A stretch of 64,000 nucleotides of DNA. Source: Eubacteriales bacterium (GTDB taxonomy: Bacteria > Bacillota > Clostridia > Oscillospirales > CAG-272). The notes under the pieces were generated by a model. It saw only the letters and a list, made by a program, of their open reading frames with translations, was not told the DNA's origin and did not search any database. The stretch is taken from assembly GCA_045658565.1 (NCBI GenBank), contig JAZOVF010000030.1, forward strand, positions 72,893 to 136,892. Direction: 5' to 3'. The first letter of the stretch is position 1. Every line of letters starts with the position of its first letter. The position numbers and the translations under genes were made by a program. Shown piece by piece: positions 58,136 to 62,199 of this stretch.

Positions 58136-58164
58136 ATTATATGAGATTTTGTGTTATTTGTCAA
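58136..58164 (-). promoter_or_regulatory. sigma-A promoter of aspartate kinase
   Basis: On the minus strand: TTGACA, 17 nt, TATAAT, about 30 nt upstream of the ATG. The leader is therefore too short for a riboswitch. Confidence 0.6.
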
Positions 58165-58269
58165 GTGGTAAAAAGACAAAAAAGGTAGAAAAAAGAAGAC
58201 CTATATTTTCAAAAAATAAGACATATTGCACATAGTGTAAAAAACTGTACAAAAGCTAGTTGCTTTGAA

Positions 58270-58761
58270 GTGGCTTTCTCTCCGCCACATACAAAATTTC
58301 AAAATGTACACGTACATAACAAAAAAACCTCCCTACCCGGAGGTTTCGTATGTGGCTTAAGAAAAGGGGTATTCACCTATGGTGAAGATACCCACGCTTG
58401 ACGCTTACAAGTAAACTTGACGCGCTCTTCGCGGGGTATGCGAACCCTTAGCGCTAAAGCGCAGGGCTAGAAAGTGGCTTTCTCTCCGCCACATATAAAA
58501 TTGCAAAATGTGCACGTACATAACAAAAAACCTCCCTACCCGGAGGTTTCGTATGTGGCTTAAGAAAAGGGGTATTCACCCATGGTGAAGATATACCCAC
58601 GCTTGACGCTTACAAGTAAACTTGACGCGCTCTTCGCGGGGTATGCGAACCCTTAGCGCTAAAGCGCAGGGCTAGAAAGTGGCTTTCTCTCCGCCACATA
58701 CAAAATTGCAAAATGTACACGTACATAACAAAAAAACCTCCCTACCCGGAGGTTTCGTATG
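58270..58761 (-). repeat. tandem repeat of about 2.4 copies (period 204/205 bp) of a tRNA-Ser-derived structured element plus terminator
   Basis: Copies at 58270-58473, 58474-58678 and 58679-58761 (partial). Terminator hairpins at 58328-58343, 58531-58546 and 58737-58752. See the first finding for the full analysis. Confidence 0.9.
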
Positions 58762-58852
58762 TGGCGGAGAGAAAGGGATTCGAACCCTTGATACCGGTTA
58801 GGGTATACACGATTTCCAGTCGTGCGCCTTAGACCAACTCGGCCATCTCTCC
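58762..58852 (-). tRNA. tRNA-Ser (GGA)
   Basis: Manual cloverleaf: acceptor GGAGAGA/TCTCTCC, anticodon loop CTGGAAA, long variable arm ATACC...GGTAT, T arm AAGGG-TTCGAAT-CCCTT, encoded CCA. Confidence 0.93.
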
Positions 58853-58865
58853 ACGCGACTTCTAT

Positions 58866-58894
58866 ATTATACCAAAGAAGTTTTAAAAAGTCAA
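58866..58894 (-). promoter_or_regulatory. sigma-A promoter of tRNA-Ser
   Basis: On the minus strand: TTGACT, 17 nt, TATAAT, about 13 nt before the tRNA 5' end. Confidence 0.6.
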
Positions 58895-59056
58895 GAGTTT
58901 TTTTATCTTTTTTTGCGTCTTTTTTGTGTTTTGTTTTTGTTTTTTTCAATTGTCATTTGCAGAAGATATAATTTTCTTTTTTATATTGATTTTTTGTACG
59001 TTTTGATATATAATCGTATATAATTCTGCATTCTTGTTATTAGAAAGGGTTATTTC

Positions 59057-59953
59057 GTGGAAGTAATACAAAAGAATTTAAAGCAGCCTGACGTTCATCG
59101 AACAATTTCAATAGATTATATTTCGGCTATACATTATTTCGAGTTTGATGACACCTTTGTTGACAGAGCCGAGTCTCACAACACATGGGAGTTAGTTTAT
59201 GTTGACAGAGGAAGATGTGATGTTATCAGCGATGAGGATACCATTCACTTAAAGCAAGGAGAAATGTTTTTCCATAAGCCTGGCGAGGTACATCTTTTAG
59301 AGGTGTGTAAAGGAGCAACACCAAATATTATTATTGTATCTTTTTATTCCGAGTCGGAAGCCATGAGGTATTTTGAAAAGCAAAAGATTGTTGCCTCAAT
59401 GACAACAAAGCAATATATTGCCGCCATAATTCACGAGGCATCAAACACATTTGATTTACCATTTAATAATCCTAGAATAACAAAGCTGAAGCTAAAACCC
59501 GAGGACGGTCTGTGGGCAGGACAGCAATCTATTGTTCTTCGTCTTGAGCTTATGCTTATTGAGCTTGTCAGAGAGAATCACTATTATTTAACAAACAGAA
59601 AGATGGTTGTACCTAAGGATATAATAGAAGATAGCTTTATACTTAAAATTGTTGAATTTATGGAATCAAGACTCTACGGCAAGTTCACTATGGACGAATT
59701 AAGCCGTGAAATGAATTTCGGTAAAACTCATATATCAAGAGCATTCTCCAAGGCCTGCGGCTGCACGGTTATAGACTATTTCACAAAAATGAAGGTGAAA
59801 GAAGCCAAACGTCTGATAAGAGAATCCAGATATAATTTCTTTGAGATATCCGAGATGCTTATGTTCTCAAATTCTCATTATTTCTCAACAGTATTCAAGA
59901 AGAATACAGGAATGACTCCCTCACAGTACAAAAAATCCTGCAAAAAAGCATAA
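59057..59953 (+). CDS. AraC-family transcriptional regulator (GTG start)
   Basis: N-terminal cupin-like sensor and a C-terminal double HTH (…FSNSHYFSTVFKKNTGMTPSQY). Confidence 0.85.
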   Translation: MEVIQKNLKQPDVHRTISIDYISAIHYFEFDDTFVDRAESHNTWELVYVDRGRCDVISDEDTIHLKQGEMFFHKPGEVHLLEVCKGATPNIIIVSFYSESEAMRYFEKQKIVASMTTKQYIAAIIHEASNTFDLPFNNPRITKLKLKPEDGLWAGQQSIVLRLELMLIELVRENHYYLTNRKMVVPKDIIEDSFILKIVEFMESRLYGKFTMDELSREMNFGKTHISRAFSKACGCTVIDYFTKMKVKEAKRLIRESRYNFFEISEMLMFSNSHYFSTVFKKNTGMTPSQYKKSCKKA

Positions 59954-60076: not shown

Positions 60077-60096
60077 AAATTAACAAAAAATTCATA

Positions 60097-60306
60097 ATAG
60101 AGGCGCGGTTTTCATGATAAGCGGTTGAATAGGGCTATATTTCTGCGTGGTAAAGGGAAAATCGCCGAGAACATATTCTGTTTGCCCTGACAGATTTGTT
60201 CGGGCGCTGCGAGAATATTGTTGCGACTGTCATTCTGTAAAGAATGGAGAGCTATTGGATATTTTGACTCTTTTGTCACAGTATTTGATAGTACTGTGGC
60301 TTTTTT
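60097..60306 (+). promoter_or_regulatory. lysine riboswitch (L-box) with terminator expression platform
   Basis: L-box landmarks in order: AGAGGCGC, GGTAAAGGGAAAATCGCCGAG, ACTGTCA, ATGGAGAGCTA. They are followed by a CACAGTA/TACTGTG hairpin and T6 (60277-60306). Confidence 0.8.
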
Positions 60307-60336: not shown

Positions 60337-62199
60337 ATGGTAGGTACTCTATGGGCCTTTATGCCCGCAATTATCGCCATAGTGCTTGCACTCGTTACAA
60401 AGCAGGTTTATATTTCCCTGTTCTTTGGTATTGTTGTCGGTGCTTTGATGTTTGTTGGCGGTAATCCTCTTCATGCGCTCTTTACCGTTTATGAGGTAAT
60501 GAGTGACAAGGTTGGAGCGAATGTTCCAATCATAGTATTCCTTGTAGTTCTTGGAATTCTCGTTGTCCTGATGCAGAAGTCAGGCGGTGCCAAGGCTTAC
60601 GGCGACTGGGCAGGAAAGAAGATTAAGTCTAAGGGTGGCGCGCTTGCAGCAACTGCAGGTCTTGGTTCGCTTATCTTTGTTGACGACTACTTCAACTGTC
60701 TCACCGTTGGTTCTGTTATGCGTCCTGTAACAGACAAGTTTAAAATCTCACGCGCAAAGCTTGCGTACATAATTGACGCAACTGCTGCTCCCGTTTGTAT
60801 CATAGCTCCCATATCCAGCTGGGCTGCTGCTGTTGCAGGCGAGCTTGAGGGCGACGGTCTTATGGTGTTTATCAGCACTATTCCCTTTAACGTATATGCT
60901 CTTCTCACTCTTGTTATGGTGTTCACTCTTTGCTTCATCAAGTTCGACTTTGGTAAGATGAAGAAGAACGACTATATCGCACAGACAACAGGCGACCTTC
61001 ACGCAGGCGAGGGTGGAAATGATGAACAAACCGCAGAGGTTAAGGCAAACCCCAAGGGTAAGGTAAGACATCTTCTTATCCCTGTTATAATCCTTATTGT
61101 TTGCTGTATCGGCGGTATGCTCTACACCGGCTTCTTCTATAACTGGGGCTCTGATATTGAAATGACCTTTGATGCAGATGATGTTGTTGCTTATGACTCT
61201 GACGAAAACGGTATTCGTGTTATTCTCCGCAACAATGATGATGTTTTTGCAGCTCTTGACGGTATTCCTTCTTCCTTCGCGGACAGCGGTAACGACTACT
61301 TCTACTATATCGATGACCAGACATACACCGACCCCGTGACTCAAAACGAGCTTCCTTATGTAAGATTCCAGATCAACAGACCCGCAACCATCACACCCGA
61401 TGAAACTTCCGTTACAGTTTATGCTGAGCTTGAGGCGGCCGGCTACACCGACGTTCCTCAGTCTGAGGATGTTATTTCCGCATTCTCCAACTGTGATGCA
61501 GGTATGTCTCTTGCTATCGGCTCTACAATAGCTCTTATCATTATTGCCGCTTATTACATGCTCTCCGGTGTTGTTTCCTTCACAGAGATAACCGGTAGCT
61601 TTACCGAGGGCTTCAAGGCTATGGTTCCCGCTATTCTTATCCTTACCTTTGCTTGGTCTATTTCCGGTATTATGGGTGCTAAGGGCGGATACCTTGATGC
61701 TCAGGCATTTGTTGAAACAAATCTTGCGAACAGCTCCTTCCCCGAATTCCTCTTCCCTGCTATATTCTTTGTTCTTGCAGGCGCTATTGCCTTTGCAACC
61801 GGTACAAGCTGGGGTACATTCGGAGTACTTGTTCCTATCGCTGTTACAATTCTTGGCGGCAGCGGAACAATGGCTATCCTCACCGTTTCTGCTACTCTTG
61901 GCGGCGCGGTATTCGGAGACCACGTTTCTCCCATCTCGGATACAACAATCCTTGCATCCGCGGGCGCGCAGTGTAACCACGTAGACCACGTTAACACTCA
62001 GCTTCCTTATGCTTCTCTTGTTGCGGGAATTGCTGCTGTTGCATATATTATCGGCGGTCTTATGGCTGATCTTGAGCTTGGCGGTATTATTACAGGCCTC
62101 ATACTTTGGGCTGTAGCACTTCTTCTCTTTGCCGGCGCAGTTGTACTTATTAAGTTCTTAAACAAGCGCGCTGAAGCTAAGAATGCTGATGCTGAATAA
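60337..62199 (+). CDS. NhaC-family transporter (putative lysine-related transporter) with a hydrophilic central insertion
   Basis: Polytopic NhaC-like N- and C-terminal halves are separated by about 130 acidic, non-membrane residues. The gene sits downstream of the L-box. Confidence 0.8.
   Translation: MVGTLWAFMPAIIAIVLALVTKQVYISLFFGIVVGALMFVGGNPLHALFTVYEVMSDKVGANVPIIVFLVVLGILVVLMQKSGGAKAYGDWAGKKIKSKGGALAATAGLGSLIFVDDYFNCLTVGSVMRPVTDKFKISRAKLAYIIDATAAPVCIIAPISSWAAAVAGELEGDGLMVFISTIPFNVYALLTLVMVFTLCFIKFDFGKMKKNDYIAQTTGDLHAGEGGNDEQTAEVKANPKGKVRHLLIPVIILIVCCIGGMLYTGFFYNWGSDIEMTFDADDVVAYDSDENGIRVILRNNDDVFAALDGIPSSFADSGNDYFYYIDDQTYTDPVTQNELPYVRFQINRPATITPDETSVTVYAELEAAGYTDVPQSEDVISAFSNCDAGMSLAIGSTIALIIIAAYYMLSGVVSFTEITGSFTEGFKAMVPAILILTFAWSISGIMGAKGGYLDAQAFVETNLANSSFPEFLFPAIFFVLAGAIAFATGTSWGTFGVLVPIAVTILGGSGTMAILTVSATLGGAVFGDHVSPISDTTILASAGAQCNHVDHVNTQLPYASLVAGIAAVAYIIGGLMADLELGGIITGLILWAVALLLFAGAVVLIKFLNKRAEAKNADAE

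Follow-up and report, generated by a model that had tools for sequence, protein, structure and literature searches.

An apparently undescribed tRNA-linked repeat family of uncultured gut Clostridia, built around a hairpin module in partial tRNA copies

The window, which is the whole 64-kb stretch of DNA analysed, contains a tandem array next to a tRNA-Ser(GGA) gene on the minus strand. ARAGORN and Rfam place the tRNA at 58762–58852, minus strand, and the array abuts this genuine gene, as a sequence-only reading of the region had proposed. Tandem Repeats Finder delimits the array to 58268–58765, with a period of 205, 2.4 copies and 96% matches. Alignment of 58270–58473 to 58474–58678 yields four substitutions and two indels (1 nt and 2 nt), which reproduces the earlier count for two full copies with a period of 204/205 bp. 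The earlier statement that each unit is followed by the same terminator as the tRNA also holds, with three identical copies of a hairpin and T run on the minus strand. The array is composed of two bodies and three terminator-plus-inverted-copy segments. In the tRNA sense, the features are as follows.

58866–58894, minus strand: tRNA-Ser promoter of the sigma-70 type, TTGACT-17-TATAAT with a TG extension (from sequence)
58762–58852, minus strand: intact tRNA-Ser(GGA) (ARAGORN; Rfam tRNA, 62 bits; 100% identical in relatives L001–L013)
58733–58756, minus strand: terminator copy 1, GAAACCTCCGGGTAGGGAGGTTTT and a T run, directly 3' of the tRNA trailer CATAC
58668–58704, minus strand: A1, inverted copy of the tRNA 3' end and trailer (TTTGTATGTGGCGGAGAGAAAGCCACTTTCTAGCCCT; I2 repeat; identical to the reverse-complemented tRNA end at 30/37 positions)
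58650–58671, minus strand: unit 1 hairpin H, GCGC-TTTA-GCGC, between CCCT and AGGG (sequence, fold and compensatory variants in relatives)
58576–58645, minus strand: unit 1 module E, about 70 nt, CATACCCCGCG...GGGTATATC followed by TTCACC-ATG-GGTGAA (nhmmer 58560–58655; covariance model, 81.9 bits)
58556–58575, minus strand: unit 1 S copy (TACCCCTTTTCTTAAGCCA), a direct degenerate copy of the T-stem 3' strand, acceptor 3' strand and GCCA (20/24 identity to the tRNA 3' end and trailer)
58527–58550, minus strand: terminator copy 2
58463–58495, minus strand: A2, second inverted copy of the tRNA 3' end and trailer (I3 repeat 58478–58500, 91%)
58445–58466, minus strand: unit 2 hairpin H and cognate T-stem 5' strand (sequence and fold)
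58372–58440, minus strand: unit 2 module E, about 69 nt, between TTCG (58441–58444) and TACCCC (nhmmer 58357–58450; covariance model, 91.9 bits)
58353–58371, minus strand: unit 2 S copy of the tRNA 3' end (TACCCCTTTTCTTAAGCCA; alignment to the tRNA end)
58324–58347, minus strand: terminator copy 3
58268–58296, minus strand: A3, third inverted copy, truncated (I1 repeat 58274–58296, 96%; Tandem Repeats Finder)

The first ~23 nt of A1 are near-perfect (58683–58705 versus 58753–58775, 96%), and its anti-T-arm part has diverged. The 3' side of the unit 1 hairpin H, AAGGG, is the T-stem 5' strand of the cognate tRNA, and compensatory variants of H are found in relatives L001 and L016 (GCGCC-GAAC-GGCGC and GCGCC-GTTGG-GGCGC). 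Module E of unit 1 is placed between TTCG (58646–58649) and TACCCC. The array stops at A3, which lies at the edge of a segment inverted relative to relatives (inversion edge near 58271). No promoter-like site was found inside the array. The second tRNA operon of the window has a plain terminator and no inverted copy.

The units are not cloverleaf tRNAs, as had been recognized from the sequence: ARAGORN calls only 58762–58852 here, and the Rfam tRNA model hits the real gene alone, even at E≤10. They also match no Rfam family: a search of the window and five type-1 loci against Rfam 15, at the gathering score and at E≤10, returned only tRNA; every sub-threshold match (E≤10) overlaps a tRNA or terminators. 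In blastn 'distant' searches of phage and plasmid records with the whole region and a type-1 array, the tRNA part was matched and the units were not, and a scan of viral contigs with the core pattern gave 0 matches. A protein-coding reading was rejected on account of the 1-nt and 2-nt indels between copies. ORF clustering revealed no transposase, recombinase or other recurrent protein gene within 3.5 kb of the units; the 'proteins' that did recur near them are spurious ORFs running through the repeat, or products of syntenic genes, lysC among them. No Ro, aminoacyl-tRNA synthetase or reverse-transcriptase genes are linked to the units. A T-box leader was rejected because Rfam gave no T-box match and because the genes that follow are unrelated and do not keep one orientation from relative to relative. 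A full-text literature search found no description of such an element.

The same architecture is present downstream of Ser(gga/tga/cga), Gln, Arg(cct/acg), Gly, Glu, Tyr and Thr tRNA genes, at about 45 loci in uncultured Clostridia, and the flanks agree with the local tRNA in each case. When one genome per species was scanned with the core pattern, 47 loci were found; 46 of these are real, all in Eubacteriales, Oscillospiraceae or Clostridia MAGs, and a metagenome scan added further loci. L050, L070, L074, L078, L081–L083, L089, L090, L092 and L094 were dropped as chance pattern matches; L073 and L095 have marginal nhmmer scores only and look like chance. Wherever the fetched DNA includes a tRNA, the element lies 75–140 nt downstream on the same strand. 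Several copies occur per MAG, many of them at contig ends. The sequence-only reading had called the element tRNA-Ser-derived. The units here do carry tRNA-Ser-derived sequence, but the conserved core adjoins 10 tRNA species, with flanks matching each local tRNA. The units belong to an apparently undescribed, tRNA-linked repeat family of uncultured gut Clostridia, which adjoins at least ten distinct tRNA genes.

The matching of the flanks involves an inverted and a direct copy of the tRNA 3' end. A 9-bp inverted repeat had been noted as closing each element; it is present, but GTATGTGGC is a mere part of a 19–23-nt inverted repeat, CTTTCTCTCCGCCACATAC(AAAA)/(TTTC)GTATGTGGCGGAGAGAAAG, that pairs each unit start with the tRNA 3' end and trailer. 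The 5' GGAGAGA of the element had been equated with the tRNA 5' end. This assignment fails because the match runs on into TGGC and GTATG upstream and AAG downstream, and the segment is therefore the reverse complement of the tRNA 3' end and trailer. At tRNA-Arg(cct), whose acceptor stem contains G-U pairs, the matching segment ACCCGCA is the reverse complement of the 3' strand and does not correspond to the 5' strand GCCTGCA. Across the family, the reverse complement of the acceptor 3' strand, NCCA and 8 nt of trailer reappears directly past the terminator. In 42 distinct loci it has a median of 3/19 mismatches, compared with about 9 for shuffled queries, and gapped alignments concur. The unit flanks change together with the local tRNA (CATTCTCTCC in L018 versus CTTTCTCTCC in the tRNA-Ser(GGA) array). 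The direct repeat of the tRNA 3' segment, S, shows 20/24 identity in the array and up to 19/19 in L069. Nothing but the trailer, terminator, A and H, about 100 bp in total, separates this copy from the tRNA. The acceptor-like 3' strand of the units has decayed in many lineages, and a closing 'acceptor' stem within a unit was rejected because it is often impossible to form. Of the family's features, none is more intriguing than this inverted copy of the tRNA 3' end, so precise and so closely matched to the local tRNA.

The conserved centre of the unit does not derive from tRNA-Ser; it is the hairpin module E, which spans 66–80 nt and reads YATACC...GGTATC followed by TTCG-n-CGAA. E is seated in the T loop of the spare partial tRNA copy, which is split at TTCG^A. 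The left junction is TTCG|YATACC without exception. The right junction, CGAA|ATTCCC in TTCGATT T loops and CGAA|ATATTCC at a D-arm site, continues as uninterrupted tRNA sequence, and in TTCGAAT T loops it is CGAA|TACCCC or CGAA|TATCCC, one base off. E is a discrete module with identical junctions in fragments of 10 tRNA species. TTCG, found at the left junction, recurs where helix C starts; no duplication is needed to account for the D-arm or the TTCGATT junctions. At the D-arm TTCG^ATAT site, E is found in reverse orientation in 5'-half copies of tRNA-Ser(tga) at six loci, one 38-nt short form among them. In these 5'-type copies, E runs opposite to tRNA transcription and lies upstream of the tRNA promoter. 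The orientation of E tracks the TTCG^A motif and not tRNA transcription. E is 86–88% identical between the Thr(ggt) T loop and the Ser(tga) D arm and 90–92% identical among Ser(cga), Gly, Gln and Glu. L041 and L026 each contain two insertions in a tRNA-like gene. Hairpins lie near both ends of E, the right one flush with the element end. The long-range helix A of E resembles terminal inverted repeats, and its arms, CATACCCCGCC and GGCGTGGGTATC, could be such repeats, though they can also be read as RNA or DNA hairpins.

The number of units at the tRNA-Ser(GGA) locus varies among close relatives, from 0 (L017) through 1 (L001/L004) and 2 (L011/L013) to 3 (L018), and the tandem junctions are unlike between lineages. 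In L002/L030, a large-serine-recombinase element lies inside the terminator loop, and in L003/L006 another island begins directly after CCA. These arrangements demonstrate that the locus is an integration hotspot. The L002 and L006 islands insert between the tRNA and the units and separate them on the kilobase scale in some strains. The cassette is flipped with respect to its neighbours in different lineages, and with respect to lysC in most relatives. Cis-regulation of lysC was rejected on account of this inversion and of the islands that may intervene. Rolling-circle Rep genes are located a few kb from the units in some relatives.

The units are rich in hairpins, in line with the sequence-only reading, and the motifs and local helices that it quoted are in the sequence, most of them recurring in the minimum-free-energy fold. 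In the fold of an array unit, CCCU of A pairs with AGGG of S across hairpin H. Compared with shuffled sequence, the tRNA-sense strand folds with z-scores of -3.2 and -2.6 and the other strand with -1.9 and -1.5. Covariation analysis identified 15 pairs with double changes; 149 such cells were counted against 57.6 in shuffles (0/500 as high), and pairing in helices is 89.7%, compared with 36–54% in slid controls. Covariation extends to four helices, among them the long-range helix A with some 45 nt between its arms. The wobble-pair test for the transcribed strand showed no bias in helices A–C, with G-U and A-C cells numbering 15 versus 12, distinct events 11 versus 10, and cells over 90 distinct copies 23 versus 21. 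The units are 77–79% identical, while the four-fold sites of the neighbouring lysC are 47–67% identical, and the junction sequences are highly conserved.

The reading that we favour, at a probability of roughly 45%, is that E is a small, non-autonomous, site-specific DNA insertion module in tRNA-gene fragments that was amplified here by tandem duplication. In the tRNA sense, a unit comprises a trailer and terminator copy, A, hairpin H, and S split by E. A is an inverted copy of the last ~30 nt of the host tRNA and its trailer, making the terminator a long palindrome; H is a short variable hairpin, and S repeats part of the host tRNA's T arm and 3' end in direct orientation. E itself, a long quasi-palindromic hairpin with an inner hairpin, followed by a second hairpin (TTCG-n-CGAA), splits the T loop of S at TTCG^A. 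It would act at the DNA level, its hairpins being recognized on DNA by an enzyme supplied in trans. This mobilizing activity is hypothetical, given that no recurrent protein gene lies within 3.5 kb. E would persist only in spare tRNA-gene fragments because insertion into a working tRNA would do harm. The 205-bp periodicity is probably secondary, the repeated terminator and 3'-end segments having recombined unequally or slipped against one another. This proposal would cover E and the periodicity; the origin and local matching of A lie outside its scope.

The DNA-insertion reading draws on the cognate flanks, fixed junctions, reverse copies, copy-number variation and lack of wobble bias, together with the absence of Rfam, phage, plasmid and viral matches. 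The distribution across tRNAs, the identity of E between contexts, the several copies per MAG and the plain second tRNA operon also count in its favour. Against it, neither a clean target-site duplication at E nor unambiguous empty and filled alleles of one site were found among the loci compared. No E was found outside tRNA-derived DNA among the loci found, which means that recognition must need more than TTCG. The family-conserved H and GAAT, which lie left of a 4–5-nt cognate segment, are not explained by simple insertion of E into host DNA. The sense strand folds somewhat better than the antisense strand, and the constraint on the units and the helix covariation would fit a functional RNA equally well.

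The main rival, which we consider somewhat unlikely, is a structured non-coding RNA family that mimics the neighbouring tRNA, each unit being transcribed in the same direction as that tRNA through read-through or a promoter of its own. Such an RNA would fold into several arms: besides an anti-T hairpin and hairpin H, a T stem would close the three-way junction that E makes. Its target or partner would be the cognate tRNA or the enzymes of that tRNA, for instance through pairing of a 5' UGGN and anti-acceptor segment to the tRNA 3' end or through a decoy role. The four covarying helices with helix A among them, the conserved junctions, a constraint beyond neutral expectation and the sense-strand z-scores (-3.2 and -2.6) all suit this explanation. 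The 3'-type units are also co-oriented with the upstream tRNA in all cases, and a consensus-like promoter and a terminator surround the E-bearing tRNA-Gln-like copy of L041. Other observations oppose it. In the covarying helices, G-U and A-C occur at about equal frequency. Strong terminators, often bidirectional ones, precede the units, which lack an internal promoter, and about half of the single units lack a terminator of their own. With the acceptor-like 3' strand decayed in many lineages, no closing stem is possible there. The 5'-type copies with E reversed upstream of the tRNA promoter, the kilobase-scale islands between tRNA and units and the inversion of the cassette relative to its neighbours in different lineages are further difficulties. 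A small RNA produced by read-through, which the sequence-only reading had listed, is accordingly possible and not favoured, given the good terminators ahead, the lack of a G-U excess over A-C and the occurrence of the core in reverse.

Another proposal, which appears doubtful, is a new class of tRNA-specific RNA with a conserved scaffold of H and E and variable antisense (A) and sense (S) segments that base-pair with the cognate tRNA or the 3' end of its gene. Its role could be that of a regulator or decoy aimed at the tRNA, or it could lead a recombinase to attachment sites in tRNA genes in the manner of a bridge or guide RNA.

Stand-alone tRNA genes with their own terminator are typical island targets, and most host tRNAs of the family are of this kind. 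The units could be passive debris, att duplications and partial tRNA pseudogenes left by repeated island integration and excision, with no function or mobility of their own and with hairpins maintained by palindrome-correcting template-switch mutation; we judge this improbable. The islands at this hotspot (L002/L030 and L003/L006) favour it, the absence of a wobble strand bias is expected of a DNA-level mutational process, and integration is known to produce partial tRNA genes (PMC9897764). However, only ~100 bp separates the tRNA from the partial copy with no integrase nearby, the same 66–80-nt E with identical junctions adjoins 10 different tRNAs, and ordinary att recombination does not yield the inverted copy A. 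The earlier suggestion of decaying pseudogenes or integration scars is only partly compatible with the data, being at odds with the 77–79% unit identity, well above the 47–67% of four-fold sites, and with compensatory changes in the helices, including helix A with arms about 45 nt apart.

Finally, the units could be folded single-stranded attachment sites, in which an A-H-S palindrome recreates the duplex 3' end of the tRNA gene with E as an extra-helical branch and a tyrosine recombinase joins the fold to the tRNA gene to give tandem arrays, by analogy with integron attC and CTX-phage attP(+). Although the zig-zag order of sense, terminator, antisense, hairpin and sense, the CCCU–AGGG pairing across H, the existence of tandem arrays, the strand-neutral hairpin conservation and the Rep genes a few kb off in some relatives agree with such a site, it is very improbable, as the tandem junctions vary by lineage with no single shared crossover point, A-to-S pairing is poor in the T-arm part, no recombinase is linked within 3.5 kb and we know of no circular or free form of the unit.

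If the DNA-insertion reading is correct, E would be a small mobile module with an unusual niche, the T loop, or a D-arm look-alike, of spare tRNA fragments that always stand beside an intact copy, and whose range is a family-level clade of uncultured gut Clostridia. It would imply a site-specific activity that recognizes tRNA-gene DNA and would help to account for contig breaks and spurious ORF calls beside tRNA genes in these MAGs. The module would also mark a hotspot of genome rearrangement, with islands, an inversion and copy-number change at one locus. Should the RNA reading hold instead, the units would represent a new family of tRNA-mimicking or tRNA-targeting RNAs.

The T loop is a classical crossover position, and tRNA integration sites are classified by sublocation. 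The units resemble the att duplications and partial tRNA genes of integrative elements (PMC9897764) in carrying, downstream of an intact tRNA, a direct repeat of part of its 3' end, and they do so at an integration hotspot. Unlike att duplications, the units have no integrated element or integrase between the copies, which are only about 100 bp apart, and they add an inverted copy and a T-loop module of 66–80 nt common to 10 tRNA species. E resembles MITEs, PATEs and REP/REPIN sequences in being short, non-coding and hairpin-forming, in occurring several times per genome and in keeping its hairpins by compensatory change. PATEs are palindrome-associated transposable elements derived from IS200/IS605, and the partners of these families are TnpA (IS200/IS605) and RAYT (REP). 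As in IS200/IS605-type insertion, E appears to be orientation-specific and to lie beside a fixed tetranucleotide without a clear target duplication. Its long-range helix and its flush right-hand hairpin suit a PATE, with hairpins in sub-terminal position, less well. E differs from MITEs, PATEs and REPINs in targeting only tRNA-derived DNA (the T loop and D-arm look-alike), in travelling with or acquiring sense and antisense copies of the local tRNA end, in having no TnpA or RAYT partner within 3.5 kb and in its apparent limitation to one uncultured Clostridia clade. The units share a T-stem/T-loop-like GGGUUCG and, in some copies, an NCCA-like end with the tRNA-like domain of tmRNA and with the bacterial Y-RNA-like YrlA, and they share a 5' UGGN and anti-acceptor segment complementary to the tRNA 3' end with the T-box UGGN and retroviral primer-binding sites. 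In contrast, they show no Rfam match to tmRNA, Y RNA, the T-box or any other family, no G-U excess and an acceptor-like stem that usually cannot form. Discrete insertions in the T loop, D arm and anticodon loop (two each in L041 and L026) recall the disrupted and multi-intron tRNA genes of archaea, but here the host is bacterial, the interrupted copies have no working acceptor stem and an intact tRNA stands alongside.

The array next to tRNA-Ser proposed in the sequence-only reading was confirmed by Tandem Repeats Finder as a single tandem array (period 205, 2.4 copies, 96% matches), and realignment of its two full copies returned the same 4 substitutions and 2 small indels. The locus contains the following features.

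58268-58765: tandem array of approximately 205-bp units, read here in the tRNA sense (minus strand)
58762-58852, minus strand: intact tRNA-Ser(gga) by ARAGORN and Rfam, with a near-consensus promoter in front

Three identical hairpin-plus-T-run terminators are present, one after the tRNA and one after each unit. The units begin with GTATGTGGCGGAGAGAAAG, which matches exactly, in reverse complement, CTTTCTCTCC-GCCA and the trailer CATAC of the tRNA. The initial GGAGAGA, previously taken as a copy of the tRNA 5' end, is therefore an inverted copy of the 3' end (inverted copy A). After the tRNA, the array consists of a first block (trailer, terminator, spacer and inverted copy A) that occurs three times and a second block (hairpin H, AAGGG-TTCG, core and TACCCC-TTTTCTTAAGCCA) that occurs twice. 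The inverted repeats of the array (I1-I3) span 23 nt with 91-96% identity. The Arg(tct)-His tRNA operon near 38.5 kb in the window has a plain terminator and none of the features of the array.

The units belong to a family located beside ten tRNA species. A core-pattern scan of one genome per species identified 47 loci, including one chance hit, and all of the others come from Eubacteriales, Oscillospiraceae or Clostridia MAGs. The same pattern found a few additional loci in metagenomes and none in viral contigs. In all fetched DNA that includes a tRNA, the element is on the tRNA strand, 75-140 nt downstream of the gene; the host tRNAs comprise Ser(gga), Ser(tga), Ser(cga), Gln(ctg), Arg(cct), Arg(acg), Gly(ccc), Glu(ctc), Tyr(gta) and Thr(ggt). 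The anatomy is identical at all loci. The intact tRNA, trailer and terminator are followed by an inverted segment (trailer, NCCA, acceptor 3' strand and diverged T arm), the variable hairpin H, a T-stem 5' strand largely matching the local tRNA, TTCG, the conserved core, and a T-stem 3' strand with an acceptor 3' strand of varying extent. Hairpin H plus GAAT, conserved across the family, directly adjoins the short cognate segment on its left side. The first part of the inverted segment differs from the local tRNA at a median of 3 of 19 positions, compared with approximately 9 in shuffled controls (42 distinct loci). At tRNA-Arg(cct), which has G-U pairs in its acceptor stem, the inverted segment agrees with the 3' strand in reverse complement and does not agree with the 5' strand itself. 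Because this anatomy recurs at ten tRNA species, the conserved centre is not derived from tRNA-Ser; the earlier description of a tRNA-Ser-derived element holds only for the flanks, which come from the tRNA.

The units match no Rfam family, in agreement with the initial impression of an undescribed class, and neither Rfam nor the searched literature describes such an element. Phage and plasmid records contained nothing similar to the units, and the proteins encoded near them include no recurrent family. Gene callers place 90-185-aa ORFs through the repeat arrays (L011:3348-3770, L004:2742-3020 and several other loci; L numbers denote contig pieces of relatives and other carriers), and these ORFs are artefacts of the repeats.

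The core (E) is a 66-80-nt hairpin module with fixed junctions (marked by a slash). The left junction is invariably TTCG/YATACC, and the right junction is ...TTCG-n-CGAA/, followed by the rest of the local sequence, namely ATTCCC at TTCGATT T loops and TACCCC or TATCCC at TTCGAAT T loops. At six loci, an extra tRNA 5' half with its 5' flank lies upstream of tRNA-Ser(tga) and contains E at TTCG^ATATTCC.

L023:2250-2375, 5'-half copy with reverse E
L046:3925-4050, 5'-half copy with reverse E
L061:4005-4115, 5'-half copy with reverse E
L069:6355-6470, 5'-half copy with reverse E
L068:3200-3345, 5'-half copy with reverse E
L037:3880-3960, 5'-half copy with reverse E

This site corresponds to the D-arm ATATCGAA in reverse complement, and E is therefore oriented opposite to tRNA transcription in these copies. 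E is full-length (68-69 nt), 38 nt or approximately 21 nt in this series. Between a Thr(ggt) T loop and the Ser(tga) D arm of other organisms, E copies share 86-88% identity, and the copies at Ser(cga), Gly, Gln and Glu share 90-92%. E appears to have moved as DNA, since it is alike across unrelated contexts and is tied to a sequence motif, not to the direction of transcription. E is also found within longer tRNA-Ser(tga) remnants (L065 and L033) and in the T loop of a tRNA-Gln-like copy (L041:4650-5000 and L026:1130-1400 (minus strand)). The latter copy harbors a second insertion of approximately 100 nt in the anticodon loop, which in L026 starts with the E-like hairpin CATACCGCC...GGCGGTAT. 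The L041 copy possesses a promoter (TTGACA/TAAAAT) and a terminator of its own, and its surroundings lack an intact tRNA.

The dense structure initially read from the units is reflected in their folding, which is more stable than that of shuffled sequence (z = -3.2 and -2.6 on the tRNA-sense strand; -1.9 and -1.5 on the opposite strand). Sixty distinct cores, aligned with MAFFT and analyzed using RNAalifold and a four-helix model (split T stem, long-range helix A, inner hairpin B and hairpin C), exhibit clear covariation. Paired cells amount to 89.7% versus 80.9% in shuffles, and double-change cells number 149 versus 57.6, with 149 reached in 0 of 500 shuffles; sliding the 3' partners left 36-54% paired. 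A covariance model derived from these aligned cores detected approximately 95 copies on the expected strand (∼25-113 bits) and only the quasi-palindromic centre on the opposite strand (∼20 bits). Diverged copies covary even at seemingly invariant pairs (e.g. A-U/U-A 78:12 and C-G/U-A 78:10 in helix A). Hairpins are likewise compensated in relatives of the window, with CAAGT/ACTTG replaced by CAAGC/GCTTG, TTCACC/GGTGAA by TTCGC/GCGAA and GCGC/GCGC by GCGCC/GGCGC.

The main rival reading, a structured RNA family that mimics or pairs with tRNA, is rather unlikely. An RNA selected on one strand is expected to show a clear G-U excess. In helices A-C, however, G-U is about as common as A-C (15 versus 12 cells, 11 versus 10 distinct events, and 23 versus 21 cells in 90 copies), and the wobble test for strand bias is thus neutral. 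This lack of excess, the position of the units behind good terminators and the reverse-oriented E copies argue for a constraint that acts at the DNA level. The absent wobble bias could equally result from a palindrome-maintaining mutational process.

Relatives of the locus were found by tracing homologues of the adjacent lysC gene (aspartate kinase) to their contigs, all from uncultured "Clostridia bacterium" MAGs. The tRNA-Ser counterpart is followed by no unit in L017, one in L001, L004 and L016, two in L011 and L013, and three in L018. These units are ∼78% identical to those of the window, whereas lysC four-fold degenerate sites are 67% (L001/L011) and only 47% (L016) identical. The units are therefore constrained and not freely decaying, which agrees only in part with their earlier interpretation as possible decaying pseudogenes. 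Passive integration debris is an improbable source of the units, less likely than an RNA family. In L018, the tRNA T stem is divergent (CATTCTCTCC), and the inverted and direct copies in its units track that change. Tandem junctions vary by lineage: the window retains the full GCCA and trailer, ...TTCTCT is fused to GCACCC in L018, and ...TTCCGC is fused to ACTCTAC in L048. This variation is consistent with tandem duplications that arose independently, through slippage or unequal recombination, rather than with a single site-specific crossover. In L014 (3560-3900), where lysC is 94% identical, no intact tRNA-Ser accompanies the two diverged units that lie upstream of lysC; before them come a promoter-like site and ∼70 nt that end in ...GAACCTCCGCCA and resemble a decayed tRNA 3' end. 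In many relatives (L008-L010 and L019-L022), the contig ends within or next to the tRNA or array.

The tRNA-Ser locus is a rearrangement hotspot. In L002 (3560-3700), an element with genes for a large serine recombinase and a relaxase interrupts the terminator-hairpin loop and separates the tRNA from the units. One junction, just after tRNA-Ser, reads GAGCACTCCAATCGG / TGCACCTGCGATAGAGCAGGT..., and the opposite end of the element, ...ACCTGCTCTATCGCAGGTTCCC / TTCGGAGTGC, borders repeat units in L030 (820-900). A different island with five ORFs lacking Pfam hits and its own terminator directly follows the CCA of the tRNA-Ser counterpart in L003 (1-3305) and L006 (1-3700), and the units of this MAG (JAGATD) are on the separate contig L030. 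Moreover, the promoter-tRNA-units cassette (window ∼58199-58980) is oriented as in L017 and inverted relative to lysC and an AraC-family regulator gene (59057-59953) in comparison with L001, L011, L016 and L018 (counterpart region 3237-3902 in L001/L011). The cassette is edged by A/T-rich inverted repeats (58171-58194/58909-58932 and 58186-58197/58974-58985), and the truncated third repeat copy terminates at one inversion edge. The islands and the inversion indicate that the units are separable from the tRNA promoter and rule them out as a cis-regulator of lysC.

The lysC gene has a perfect TTGACA-17-TATAAT promoter (58136-58164) and no riboswitch of its own. A lysine riboswitch (60090-60262, 82.5 bits) precedes a 620-aa gene (60337-62199), whose orthologue in relatives contains a Na+/H+ antiporter Pfam domain. 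In some relatives, small rolling-circle replication genes (REP_ORF2-G2P; Rep_OBD with a phage-integrase-family gene) are situated ∼3 kb past lysC, which suggests a second insertion hotspot near the tRNA-Ser locus.

L001:8210-9276, rolling-circle replication genes
L003:7816-8882, rolling-circle replication genes
L008:4467-5533, rolling-circle replication genes
L016:7798-9043, rolling-circle replication genes

The 205-bp units are best, if tentatively, interpreted (probability of roughly 0.45) as the local amplification of a tRNA-linked composite repeat. Its conserved centre would be a site-specific insertion module, small and non-autonomous, at TTCG^A of spare tRNA-gene fragments. E would be mobile at the DNA level through an enzyme acting in trans and would survive only in spare tRNA-gene fragments, and the arrays would grow by unequal recombination. 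A folded single-stranded-DNA attachment site is a far more doubtful reading of the units than an RNA family. The units are akin to two known kinds of sequence, small palindromic insertion elements and tRNA-gene fragments.
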